Assembly (NCBI GenBank): GCA_022823055.1
Contig: JAJDXX010000240.1
Location: 8,794 to 72,793, forward strand
Reading direction: 5' to 3'
DNA: 64,000 bases
Source: Candidatus Binatia bacterium
GTDB taxonomy: Bacteria > Desulfobacterota > Binatia > UBA9968 > JAJDTQ01
Shown: one piece after another, positions 43,852 to 58,126 of the stretch
How positions within the stretch are numbered: position 1 is the first letter of the stretch
How the letters are laid out: each line of letters opens with the position of its first letter
Position numbers and translations under genes: made by a program
The notes under the pieces: generated by a model
Told to the model about the DNA's origin: nothing
The model's input: only the letters and a program-made list of their open reading frames with translations
Database searches by the model: none

Positions 43852-43902
43852 CCGTACCAAATAGTACGGAACCAGCGTACCCTACGTTACGGTTCTTGTC
43901 AA
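43852..43902 (-). promoter_or_regulatory. Putative sigma70-type promoter plus palindromic operator upstream of the six-gene operon
   Basis: Minus-strand reading: AAAAAAATTTG-TTGACA-N17-TACGCT-GGTT-CCGTAC-TATTTG-GTACGG. The same architecture occurs at 52701-52756 and 58083-58126. Confidence 0.5.
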
Positions 43903-43935
43903 CAAATTTTTTTGGCGATCCGGCGCCGGTCAGGT

Positions 43936-44185
43936 TTAGTTCGACGATTCGGCCGACAAGCGCAGCGCAGCTTCGGTGGCGCGCAGCAAGGCCTCGCGCT
44001 TGCGCCCCCGCTCGGCCTTGAGCAACGGATTGCGGCACACCATCAGACGCTCCCCGGGATATTGTTCGGAGCGTAGTGGCGGTGCATCTGTTCTGCTCTT
44101 GTGTTGCGCGCCGGTCTGCTTTACCGTTCCCGTTCGCGACAGAACCCGAACGTGGCGTTCCCCCGGGTGTAGTTCCGGGTCTCAC
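43936..44185 (-). pseudogene. Possible relic of a DDE-transposase gene (fragment only)
   Basis: Stop-free frame reads ...RSEQYPGERLMVCRNPLLKAERGRKREALLRATEAALRLSAESSN*. From memory, the GERLxVCRNPxL..ER.RKRE.LL.ATE block resembles a conserved segment of IS4/IS1634-like transposases. No intact ORF. Confidence 0.3.
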
Positions 44186-44197
44186 AAGGAGAGTGAC

Positions 44198-45190
44198 ATG
44201 GTCCGAACGGTGCTCGTCGTGGTCGTGGCCCTGAGCGTATCCGCGTCCTGGGCCGCGGATTTCAAGCCTGCGGTGGTCTTCGACAAGGGCGGCAAGTTCG
44301 ACAAGAGCTTCAACGAGGGGGTCTGGAACGGGATCCGGAAGTTCGTCGACGAGACCGGCGTGGAGGTGCTGGAGTTCCAGGTCACCAACGAGGCCCAGCG
44401 CGAGCAGGCCATGCGCCGGATGGTCCGGCGAGGGGCCACCGTGGTGCTGGCGGTGGGCTTCTCCCAGGCCGACGCCATCAACGCGGTGGCGGCAGATCAC
44501 CCCGGCCGGCAGTTCGCGATCATCGATGTCTTCTGGCTTGACCGGCCGAATCTCCGGCAATACTCCTTCAAGGAGCACGAGGGTTCCTACCTCGTCGGCG
44601 TCGCCGCCGCGCTCACTTCGAAGACCGGCAAGATCGGTTTCGTGGGCGGCATGGACGTACCGTTGATCCGGAAGTTCGCCTGCGGCTACGTGCAGGGGGC
44701 CAGGGAAGCCAGGTCCGGCGTCGAAGTGCTCCGGAACATGACCGGCACGACGCCCGCGGCGTGGAACGATCCGGCGAAGGGGGCCGAGCTGGCGCGCGGC
44801 CAGATCGACCGGGGCGCCGACATCGTCTACCATGCGGCCGGCGCCACGGGCCTCGGCGTCATCCGGGCGGTGGCGGATGCCGGCAAGCTCGCTATCGGGG
44901 TCGACTCGAACCAGAACGGGGTGGCTCCGGGGCACGTGCTCACCTCGATGCTGAAGCGCGTGGACGTGGCCGCCTACCAGACGCTGAAGGACGCCATGGA
45001 CGGGAAGTTCACCGCCGGAGTGGTGACCCTCGGCCTCGCCGAGGGCGGCGTCGACTGGGCGCAGGACGAGCACAACGCCGATCTGGTGTCCGCGGAGGTG
45101 CGCGCCGCGGTCGAACGGGCCAAGGCGGACATCATCGCCGGCAGGATCATCGTGCACAACTACGAACGCGACTCCAACTGTCCGTTCTGA
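44198..45190 (+). CDS. BMP-family ABC transporter substrate-binding lipoprotein-like protein (nucleoside/PnrA-like)
   Basis: AAGGAGAG RBS. Signal peptide. ...VVFDKGGKFDKSFNEGVWNGIRKF...GFVGGMDVPLIRKF..GY..G, the Bmp/Med pattern. Confidence 0.85.
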   Translation: MVRTVLVVVVALSVSASWAADFKPAVVFDKGGKFDKSFNEGVWNGIRKFVDETGVEVLEFQVTNEAQREQAMRRMVRRGATVVLAVGFSQADAINAVAADHPGRQFAIIDVFWLDRPNLRQYSFKEHEGSYLVGVAAALTSKTGKIGFVGGMDVPLIRKFACGYVQGAREARSGVEVLRNMTGTTPAAWNDPAKGAELARGQIDRGADIVYHAAGATGLGVIRAVADAGKLAIGVDSNQNGVAPGHVLTSMLKRVDVAAYQTLKDAMDGKFTAGVVTLGLAEGGVDWAQDEHNADLVSAEVRAAVERAKADIIAGRIIVHNYERDSNCPF

Positions 45191-45241
45191 CGGGGACCGG
45201 ATTCGCGTGGTCCGTTTCCGGCCTGCTGGAGGACAACTCGG

Positions 45242-56516: not shown

Positions 56517-56536
56517 GGACCGTCGGTTCCCGTTTC

Positions 56537-57700
56537 CTAACCGTCTACGAGACGCCAGACATTCGGCCAGCCGTGACGGGTGGGTTCGCGCGTGCGGTCG
56601 CGCGAGTCCTGCGGCATCCCTTCGATGCTTTGGCGAATGTCGTCGTTGACCGCGCCGCAGTGGTAGTAGCTGTGCTCGATGAGACCGCTCACGAGCTGGC
56701 TGCAATCGACCTGATGGACACGGTCGGGCAGATACGCGGGCCATTCGGCGCCGTCCCGCCCAAGTCTGTCGGAGGCCCCCTTCGCGTACTCGGAAGACGG
56801 CATGGTGGGGTCACGCCTGTTGTGGTAGATGGTGACGGCTTCTGCCATCTCCGCCAGCCTGTGGAAGGGCTCTCCCGGCTGGAACACGTCGGCAGCCACA
56901 TCCGCGGCGCACAGGAATATCTGTTGAAAGATGCGCGGCAGCCTGCCGCCGGCGGAGAACTTCGCAGTCCGCTCCAGGGCGTTCTGCAGGACGTAGTTCC
57001 CCATGGAGTGGCAGAGAAGTTGTATCGGCTGTCCATAAAGGCTCTCGCCTTTTCGACGGGCGAGGCTCCGTGCATGGAGGAGGTAGTCTCGAAGCTTGAG
57101 GAGACCGCGTCCGAGGGCATAACCGGACACCTTGGCGTCGGTGTGGTCGGAAAAATAGGACCAGTGCGGGATTTCCCGGTCGCCTGACGGCCATGCGAAC
57201 AAGACGACGTGAACCCGCGGCGACTGATTCGGGGACCCCTCGCCTCCTGAGTGGCGGTTCAACATGCATTGCAGGCTGAGGGCGGATCCAACCGCCTGCC
57301 ACCAGTTCATGTTGGGACCGTGGACGAAGATGAGGACGTGGTCGCCGCTGTTCATCTTCGCCTGCAATTCGGAGAACGCCCGGCTGGAACCGAGCTTCCG
57401 CCGCGGCTGGTCGGATTCGTTGGCCTCCCTCGAGAGATTTTCGGTGAAGGCGTTGATGGCCGCCTTGCCCCTCTGATCGTAGAAGTACCTTGACAGCTTC
57501 TCTCCGTTCCCGGCGCCGAATCCACAGTCGTCCTCCAGGTACCGGGTTACCTTGGCGTGGTCGTAGCGGATGGTTACAAGCCCGAACCGGAGGTTTTCGG
57601 TGCCGTCTTCACTCGGTTCCGGGCCATATCCCGTCGGTTTCCAGCGCTCTCTTCCGCGGTGGTGCCGGTTGGTCGCGTAGTAGAGTTGCGTCGTTGCCAT
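56537..57700 (-). CDS. Alpha/beta hydrolase of the DUF900 type (paralogue 2)
   Basis: GGAG 9 nt before ATG 57700. ...QLYYATNRHH..., VLIFVHGPN, CHSMGN, FLCAADV. Same C-terminus RHGWPNVWRLV as paralogue 1. Confidence 0.7.
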   Translation of the reverse strand: MATTQLYYATNRHHRGRERWKPTGYGPEPSEDGTENLRFGLVTIRYDHAKVTRYLEDDCGFGAGNGEKLSRYFYDQRGKAAINAFTENLSREANESDQPRRKLGSSRAFSELQAKMNSGDHVLIFVHGPNMNWWQAVGSALSLQCMLNRHSGGEGSPNQSPRVHVVLFAWPSGDREIPHWSYFSDHTDAKVSGYALGRGLLKLRDYLLHARSLARRKGESLYGQPIQLLCHSMGNYVLQNALERTAKFSAGGRLPRIFQQIFLCAADVAADVFQPGEPFHRLAEMAEAVTIYHNRRDPTMPSSEYAKGASDRLGRDGAEWPAYLPDRVHQVDCSQLVSGLIEHSYYHCGAVNDDIRQSIEGMPQDSRDRTREPTRHGWPNVWRLVDG

Positions 57701-58044
57701 TGGCGGTGGCTCCAGGGACGTCATGGGCAATACCCGTCGTGCTCAGCATGAGCCAGAGTCACTCATTGAAGCCTCTTCCGCTACTCGTTCCCCAGAACGT
57801 CTCAGTTTCGTGTCGAAACAGTATAGCGCTCTACGGTTTCATGGCCCGCCCCAAGATTGGGAAGGGCATAAAGGAGGCAGCTCGGCCACCGCGCTTACCC
57901 GGCTATGCCGTAACCCATGTGCCTTCCGTCACATGGACGAGGTCGAAATGCGTAAACCTCGCTGAAACAATCGTATCCAGGATACTTGCGGCACCCGGCG
58001 GACGGCGCAACGTACGCTCCCCAGTATGGGGCCTCCCTGGATTT

Positions 58045-58092
58045 TGGGTTCTCGCCCACCGTACTAGTTGGGTTCTCGCCCACCGTACTAGT
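58045..58092. repeat. Perfect 24-bp tandem duplication
   Basis: TGGGTTCTCGCCCACCGTACTAGT x2 (58045-58068, 58069-58092). The second copy supplies the left half of the CCGTAC-N6-GTACGA palindrome. Confidence 0.95.
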
Positions 58093-58126
58093 AAGTACGA
58101 TTATAGCTTCCACCTCTACCTGTCAA
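58083..58126 (-). promoter_or_regulatory. Putative promoter plus palindromic operator about 390 nt upstream of DUF900 paralogue 2
   Basis: Minus-strand reading: TTGACA-N15-TATAAT immediately followed by TCGTAC-TTACTA-GTACGG. Confidence 0.45.

Follow-up and report, generated by a model that had tools for sequence, protein, structure and literature searches.

Introduction

TetR-family regulators, among them those of the TetR-tetO and QacR-IR1 pairs, join a TetR_N helix-turn-helix domain to a C-terminal ligand domain. Their operators are palindromes of about 18 bp that overlap the target promoter and its predicted start, and operators can be paired. The same features were found in a 64,000-nt stretch of DNA from a Candidatus Binatia bacterium (GenBank assembly GCA_022823055.1, contig JAJDXX010000240.1, positions 8,794 to 72,793), hereafter the window. 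In it, the palindrome CCGTAC-N6-GTACGG lies at the predicted promoters of DUF900 genes and of a six-gene cassette, and two TetR_N + TetR_C_7 paralogues, tetR1 and tetR2, are encoded. The comparisons below suggest that this element, generalised as (C)CGTACY-N4-RGTACGG, is probably the operator of a repressor with this domain pair and the recognition helix S-x-SKETLYxWFGD. In distant homologues of TetR1, paired sites lie within the divergent intergenic region of the regulator gene, as in known TetR/operator pairs. Unlike in typical pairs, the regulator genes of the Binatia are mostly convergent with or distant from their targets, two paralogues share one recognition helix, and control would extend to DUF900 genes in multiple copies and to captured cassettes instead of an efflux pump or a catabolic operon.

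A TetR-family operator with CGTAC half-sites has been described for SimR of Streptomyces antibioticus, again with two operators per intergenic region (TTCGTACGGTGTATGAA, symmetrised TTCGTACGGCGTACGAA; PMC3241653). The symmetrised SimR half-sites are spaced as GTAC-N3-GTAC, in contrast to N6 here, and SimR controls an efflux pump. It was not among the solved-structure sequence matches to TetR1. In the searchable literature, the operator CCGTACY-N4-RGTACGG was not found; nearest were the SimR operator, with its other spacing, and a FasR oligonucleotide, which is a different site. The AefR-like/TetR_C_7 regulators (PF14246; 3c2b, NalC 8ke8) have the C-terminal domain family that is common to both regulators of the window, and their solved members show low identity to them. 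A DNA complex of a close TetR1 relative was not found. We know of no solved AefR-like/TetR_C_7 relative that uses this operator.

Palindromic sites and predicted promoters

A sequence-only reading of the window had reported three copies of CCGTAC-N6-GTACGG. With at most one mismatch allowed, the window held exactly these three matches (Table 1) where 0.13 were expected, and 0 of 100 shuffles gave three. The core GTAC-N6-GTAC was present in five copies against 0.18 expected, comprising sites 1 to 3, a copy at 49001-49014 near tetR1 and an intragenic copy at 24271, which is GC-rich and probably due to chance. The count of three was therefore right for the sites named and short by one, as the fourth site upstream of tetR1 had been missed. 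A position weight matrix (PWM) scan of the window revealed no further site. Hence no site lies 5' of a housekeeping gene in the window, in line with the earlier reading. Avoidance of GTAC as a restriction site was considered and rejected: 165 GTAC were counted against roughly 200 expected by our own base-composition estimate, which is no strong depletion.

The reading had also placed a TTGACA hexamer and a -10 element before each site. TTGACA was present in all three cases. On the minus strand, the region of site 1 reads TTGACA-N17-TACGCT-GGTT-CCGTACTATTTGGTACGG and that of site 2 TTGACA-N18-TATTAC-N8-CCGTACTTATAGGTACGG, with the putative -10 element TATTAC at 52727-52732. At site 3, TTGACA is followed after a spacer of just 15 nt by TATAAT (58100-58105), the last base of which is overlapped by TCGTACTTACTAGTACGG. 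The -10 hexamers, though present, are weaker than had been implied: none of the three promoters passed a sigma-70 consensus scan, in which the sole match of the window was the tetR1 promoter.

Site 1 has a degenerate second copy 23 bp upstream, within the -35/-10 spacer of its promoter, and the right half of this copy makes the putative -10 element TACGCT (43874-43879). Site 1 itself aligned to the promoter-distal operator of the tandem pairs found in relatives (alignment A3). Downstream of site 3, a 24-nt tandem duplication repeats the GTACGG half-site 24 nt away and gives rise to a pair of small GGG...CCC hairpins. The duplication has the look of recent slippage. The (CA)n run at 49028-49039 (TTGACAcacacacacagg) fills the -35/-10 spacer of tetR1. 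It was not present in the orthologous promoters of L126 and L127, and slippage in the run would alter the promoter spacing.

Table 1. Features of the window discussed in the text, with positions counted from its first letter.
Feature	Position	Strand	Description
Candidate operator site 1	43852-43869	minus	CCGTACTATTTGGTACGG, exact match
Candidate operator site 2	52701-52718	minus	CCGTACTTATAGGTACGG, exact match
Candidate operator site 3	58083-58100	minus	TCGTACTTACTAGTACGG, one mismatch
Fourth site	48999-49016	+	GGGTACCTGGAAGTACGG, 5 bp 5' of the tetR1 -35 element
Degenerate second operator copy	43875-43892	minus	CCGTAACGTAGGGTACGC, PWM score 13.1
Tandem duplication after site 3	58044-58092	minus	ACTAGTACGGTGGGCGAGAACCCA x2, exact, 24 nt
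-35 TTGACA, site-1 promoter	43897-43902	minus	preceded by A-tract 43903-43913
-35 TTGACA, site 2	52751-52756	minus	
-35 TTGACA, site 3	58121-58126	minus	
Predicted tetR1 promoter	49022-49051	+	TTGACA-18-TAAAGT, (CA)n run in spacer
tetR1	49093-49698	+	TetR_N + TetR_C_7, recognition helix SASKETLYAWFGDK; candidate operator binder
tetR2	35081-35734	+	paralogue 61% identical to tetR1, identical recognition helix; second candidate binder
DUF900 start remnant	43747-43758	minus	ATGGCAACTACG, M-A-T-T, end of conserved head
Six-gene cassette	37754-43719	minus	mostly signal-peptide proteins, no known family
Operon behind site 2	49782-52659	minus	DUF900 hydrolase, C70-like protein, 276-aa protein
DUF900 hydrolase	51478-52659	minus	site-2 operon
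C70 (AvrRpt2-type) peptidase-like protein	50654-51355	minus	site-2 operon
276-aa protein	49782-50612	minus	site-2 operon
Second DUF900 gene	56537-57700	minus	start about 380 nt downstream of site 3

Conservation of the palindrome

Loci that encode DUF900 homologues were collected for comparison, both on long contigs and through a metagenome scan. The window DUF900 protein had an exact match on a soil-type metagenome scaffold, and a syntenic Candidatus Binatia contig encodes a DUF900 protein 69% identical to that of the window. The motif was present 5' of DUF900 genes in every relative of at least 69% identity (L003, L004, L126-L129 and L206-L208). Enrichment in 5' regions had been proposed beforehand as a check. 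In the close Binatia lineage (210 kb), the core GTAC-N6-GTACG showed 24 matches against 1.5-2.2 expected, an enrichment of more than 10-fold, and 23 of these were located in regulatory intergenic DNA. By comparison, the loci of approximately 50%-identical DUF900 homologues from other lineages (about 75 loci, 550 kb) held one core match against 2.6 expected. At the loci of DUF900 homologues of about 50-63% identity, the motif was not found.

Alignment in register of 23 sites from 10 loci revealed invariant G-T-A-C and G-T-A-C-G cores with free spacers. A pyrimidine followed the first core and a purine preceded the second; the 3' flank was mostly GG and the 5' flank variable. The surrounding promoter sequence also varied among the 10 loci. 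All 15 promoter-proximal sites followed a TTGAC[AT] -35 hexamer, usually with an A-tract before it. Their motifs started 22-40 nt past the -35 element (median 33, n=15), that is from overlap with the -10 element to about +10, and in five loci a second site lay 22 bp downstream, forming tandem pairs. The gene after the operators was mostly DUF900; a Trypsin_2 protease gene was found in L206 and a DUF900 remnant with the gene of a 988-aa protein in L004.

A genome collection was also scanned at the DNA level only, with the pattern GTAC-N6-GTACGG-N4-8-GTAC-N6-GTACGG. Useful matches were limited to L052, L010 and L080. The others were mostly tandem repeats of the 10-nt sequence GTACGGNNNN in Lentisphaeria, Streptomyces and other organisms. 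Short arrays of this repeat, unrelated to the operator, occur in many metagenome-assembled genomes (MAGs) of Lentisphaeria/Victivallales and in Streptomyces genomes (L006-L125), and in Lentisphaeria they often follow a conserved sequence ending in GCTCGCTTGCGCTCGATATGCGCCCG. For the L004 DUF900 paralogue at 15066-15180, the public gene call starts upstream of the gene's own TTGACA promoter and operator (site 15131), and the ATG near 15180 is the likelier start.

Candidate regulators

Both regulators were assigned to the same two domain families. TetR1 matched PF00440 with E 1.3e-14 and PF14246 with E 4.5e-20; for the tetR2 open reading frame (35048-35734) the values were 7.5e-12 and 1.7e-26. 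Solved-structure matches to TetR1 were all TetR proteins, the best being 3c2b with E = 1e-23. Comparison of the window proteins with domain families gave no transcription factor besides these two. Homologues of TetR1 number in the hundreds, and the helix SASKETLYAWFG(D/N)K was nearly invariant among the 120 homologues listed. Homologues of 36-61% identity keep the recognition helix SKETLYxWFGD.

The palindrome accompanies this helix far from the Binatia locus. Three TetR1 homologues of 58-61% identity (L210, L211 and L212) lie in unrelated contexts, each divergent from a gene for a 137-aa protein. Each of the three intergenic regions, about 100 bp long, has two palindromes of the form CCGTAC(C)-N-(G)GTACGG 27-28 bp apart, for example CCGTACCAATCGGTACGG ... 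GTACCGATTGGTACGG, and one of the loci carries the symmetric variant CCGAAC...GTTCGG. In two loci that came from the DNA-only scan, L080 (Roseovarius) and L010 (a Pseudomonadota MAG), tandem sites were located directly beside TetR genes, the products of which are 36-38% identical to TetR1 and have the helix SKETLYNWFGDK or SKETLYKWFGDR. Since helix and operator co-occur in five non-syntenic contexts, the palindrome is probably bound by the TetR_N + TetR_C_7 subfamily, which includes the two TetR proteins of the window, and this co-occurrence is the main evidence for it.

Outside Binatia, the divergent partners are a small protein of no family and an Anthrone_oxy protein (PF08592), as in L210 (3842-4901), L212 (3938-4904), L010 (1850-2416) and L080 (1313-1672). 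The small partner comprises 137 aa in L210-L212 and 119 aa in L080, where it is apparently membrane-spanning. An Anthrone_oxy gene also adjoins the TetR gene in two of the three loci L210-L212 and is the divergent gene in L010. The small protein and Anthrone_oxy probably represent the ancestral regulon of this TetR subfamily.

Those features of a TetR switch that are open to sequence analysis were found together: the regulator domain architecture, a palindromic candidate operator at 15 predicted promoters, and co-occurrence of regulator and site across five distant loci. Within the lineage of the window, co-occurrence is partial. The site 5' of tetR1 keeps its position in three genomes (the window, L126 and L127) with three different spacers. 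In L207, tetR1 and a DUF900 promoter with an operator are arranged divergently. For tetR2, the half-site CCGTACGG (35032-35039) precedes TTGAAA (35044-35049) by 4 bp, a place equivalent to that of the tetR1 site. The sequence-only reading had proposed a common repressor operator, placed at the -10 element or immediately downstream of it, that unites the loci in one regulon, and had pointed to the two TetR paralogues. The invariant core, the lineage-limited enrichment and the TetR co-occurrence argue for such a regulon, and the palindromes in the intergenic regions of distant TetR genes of the same subfamily argue for these candidates.

Several observations weigh against the assignment. Autoregulation is not general, because tetR1 of L003 and L208 has no upstream site and tetR2 has a half-site only. 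With its centre near -50, the tetR1 site is outside the classic range for repression. The -10 hexamers are weak, and overlap of the sites with transcription starts is itself a prediction. Co-occurrence of TetR genes and sites within Binatia does not count as independent, because it concerns one syntenic neighbourhood; independent support comes from the five distant loci only. A third paralogue elsewhere in the genome could also be the true binder.

Alternative explanations

The palindrome might be a real operator bound by a dimer of another family (LexA-, Crp/Fnr-, Xre- or GntR-type) encoded elsewhere. In that case the TetR proteins would have no part in the switch and would act on the genes beside them, namely the Bmp ABC transporter operon and the gene of the TPP enzyme. 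In favour of this, 6-N6-6 palindromes are found with more than one regulator family, tetR1 and tetR2 belong to the syntenic core next to these genes, and tetR1 of L003 and L208 does without the site. This is nonetheless unlikely, as the palindrome occupies the short intergenic regions of distant TetR genes of the same subfamily in five non-syntenic contexts, two of them found by DNA pattern alone, and the window encodes no other DNA-binding protein. A LexA/SOS box, which is likewise palindromic and would be expected upstream of lexA, recA and other SOS genes, was considered and dropped in view of the direct link to TetR; no SOS gene was present in the window or in the fetched loci. Common descent accounts for part of the similarity, as the promoter heads are homologous beyond the motif, with A-tract, TTGACA, leader and start codon all aligning. 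That inheritance is the whole explanation, so that duplicated DUF900 5' regions carry a palindrome without present function, is the least probable of the readings considered. Under neutral decay, nine positions would not stay unchanged across 23 copies when the 6-nt spacers and -10 regions diverge freely. The motif is moreover present where no homology to the heads exists, at the tetR1 promoter and at the distant TetR loci.

An action in RNA was weighed as well, with the element forming a 5'-terminal stem-loop (stem of 6-7 bp, loop of 4-6 nt) that stabilises the mRNA or binds a protein. Perfect copies fold at -7 to -8 kcal/mol with z of about -3, many sites are at the extreme 5' end of predicted transcripts, and the Y-R pair flanking the core is changed on both sides in 6 of 23 sequences. 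However, the four core pairs are invariant, pairing at the two outer positions is lost in 9 and 11 of 23 sequences (39-48%), and overall covariation was no better than in a control slid by +1. Several copies fold at -2.9 kcal/mol, no better than shuffles, and Rfam gave no match. Some sites start 22-29 nt past the -35 element, within or before the -10 element, and would therefore not be fully transcribed; the tetR1 copies even lie upstream of the -35 element. A cis-regulatory RNA was rejected as very improbable, as neither general compensatory pairing nor a location of all sites fully within the predicted transcript was found. The invariant core without covariation, together with sites beyond the predicted transcript, argues instead for a symmetric dimer that recognises this sequence in duplex DNA.

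Proposed mechanism and significance

For the TetR repressor preferred here, one dimer would occupy each 18-bp site, and pairs 22-23 bp apart would accommodate two dimers on the same helix face. At DUF900-type promoters, where sites extend from -10 to about +25, binding would block either RNA polymerase binding or promoter escape, so that repression is expected rather than activation. Either paralogue may be the acting regulator. Release of the repressor would be triggered by a small ligand, presumably through the C-terminal domain, and the site just upstream of the tetR1 -35 element would provide feedback on tetR1. In this Binatia lineage, the operator accompanies the 5' heads of DUF900 alpha/beta-hydrolase genes. 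Copies of these genes now occupy several slots within a single syntenic region. Any foreign gene landing behind such a head would come under the same control. In the window this would apply to the six-gene cassette, and the Trypsin_2 gene of L206 and the gene of the 988-aa protein in L004 may be further captured genes.

A TetR-type switch is a known kind of mechanism, and this is a new example and no new kind. It provides a testable operator consensus, CCGTACY-N4-RGTACGG, for a widespread uncharacterised TetR_C_7 subfamily in Binatia and Pseudomonadota (Roseovarius and unclassified MAGs). It would also offer a first regulatory handle on function-undefined genes of uncultured Binatota, namely the DUF900 hydrolases, their partners and the near-orphan secreted six-gene cassette. 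The last of these illustrates clearly how a regulated promoter already in place can capture foreign genes.

DUF900 promoter heads and the captured cassette

In relatives, the slot flanked by the Bmp operon and the TPP/tetR2 genes contains DUF900 heads to which the head of site 1 could be aligned. This alignment spans the A-tract, TTGACA, both operators and the leader up to ATGGC-AC-. Sequence comparison indicates that the three promoter heads are paralogous 5' regions of DUF900 genes, homologous rather than convergent. In the window, a deletion of about 30 bp moved the first operator into the spacer of the site-1 promoter. Past the remnant M-A-T-T follow the cassette's own Shine-Dalgarno sequence and ATG (M14, 43719).

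The cassette proteins comprise about 500, 326, 538, 236, 158 and 201 aa, and several are cysteine-rich. The first of them had four homologue clusters among 5.8 billion proteins. The whole six-gene array was present on two more contigs (L213, 1964-7950; L215, 1260-7230) with a GC content of 0.52-0.57, and one of these arrays adjoins a DDE transposase. The palindrome was not found at either array. Judged by this distribution, the six-gene array is a rare mobile cassette, inserted just past the start codon of a DUF900 head. Because the head aligns with those of relatives and the array occurs elsewhere without the motif, the operator is part of the resident DUF900 head, behind which the cassette was captured. 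The earlier proposal that ten genes form one system was not supported, as the cassette is mobile and the three heads are paralogous instead of independent; the claim of one system is weaker than that of a regulon.

The arrangement resembles integron-like cassette expression in that a foreign cassette with its own ribosome-binding site is placed behind a resident regulated promoter and in that the same slot holds different cargo in relatives. Unlike in integrons, there is no integrase, attC/attI-like site or array, and the exchange resembles an ordinary insertion or deletion within a DUF900 gene. The comparison is one of analogy only. In the same slot of L004, DUF900 is internally deleted to 30 aa and followed by another foreign gene. 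This DUF900 pseudogene (18179-18271) fuses the first 14 codons (MATTQIHYATNRRH) to a tail resembling the C-terminus (WPNVRRLVGE*). It sits behind paired operators, with the gene of the 988-aa coiled-coil-like protein next. That DUF900 heads, with their strong -35 element, paired TetR operators, conserved leader and start codon, serve as reusable ligand-gated expression platforms, through which cassettes inserted just within the DUF900 reading frame repeatedly join one TetR-controlled secreted or hydrolytic (possibly antagonistic or defensive) programme while two repressors integrate two signals, is conceivable but rather doubtful; the alternative to it is a series of unrelated insertion accidents.

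Leaders of the heads in the Bmp-operon slot (43747-43790 in the window, 9900-10003 in L003, and those of L206, L128, L129 and L004) share AGGAAAGGAGC...TTGCCGGGG...TGGCTCG...GACGCAGGAG..GACGCATGGC. One Shine-Dalgarno-like box lies about 45 nt 5' of the ATG, and another adjoins it. The shared leader may encode a leader peptide or form an RNA structure.

The sequence-only reading had assigned each site to the gene set downstream. Control of the second DUF900 gene by site 3 is the least certain of these links, because the gap is about 380 nt and its proximal part of about 215 nt is conserved without an operator. This part, 57701-57915, is roughly 80% conserved with an L004 paralogue (9790-10000) that has no TetR-type promoter or operator. 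It includes CCGTAGAGCGCTATACTG and GAACGAGTAGCGGAAGAGGC, had no match in Rfam, and may represent either a further promoter or a leader with RNA structure. In some relatives, the slot of site 3, before the DNA ligase gene, holds a LysR gene. The DUF900 gene before the DNA ligase gene adjoins a divergent LysR gene in L004 (8150-8180) and L207 (1424-2486), and the DUF900/LysR intergenic DNA of L004 has a different palindrome, ACTTATCAAACTGATAAGT, in place of the TetR operator. This suggests regulatory rewiring of the paralogues.

Genes behind the sites and genomic context

Lower GC of the three loci, as previously claimed, was confirmed: third-position GC was 0.60-0.78 in genes behind the sites compared to 0.85-0.90 in neighbours. 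Besides tetR1 and tetR2, the neighbours with a family match serve metabolism, transport or DNA repair and comprise an ABC transporter operon of Bmp type, genes for a TPP enzyme and an ATP-dependent DNA ligase, a DUF3891 gene and a gene for a protein with a DMFA2_C domain. The gene trio behind site 2 was likewise found downstream of an operator in L208.

The two DUF900 proteins of the window scored 87.0 and 63.7 bits against PF05990 (cut-off 20.5). An AlphaFold model (pLDDT 79) is consistent with an alpha/beta hydrolase fold. A PDB fold search with this model gave weak esterase/cutinase matches only (best E 0.005). A 2026 preprint describes an archaeal secreted bactericidal phospholipase, the homologues of which mostly match DUF900. 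It is a lead and not evidence, since the DUF900 proteins of the window have no signal peptides. Searches of PADLOC, NCBIfam and Pfam gave no match for the six cassette proteins or the DUF900 partner proteins, and Rfam gave none in the window. Apart from these loci, the window contains at 1678-3789 one long open reading frame in which an N-terminal GPP34 domain and a cytochrome P450 domain are joined, apparently an unusual fusion.

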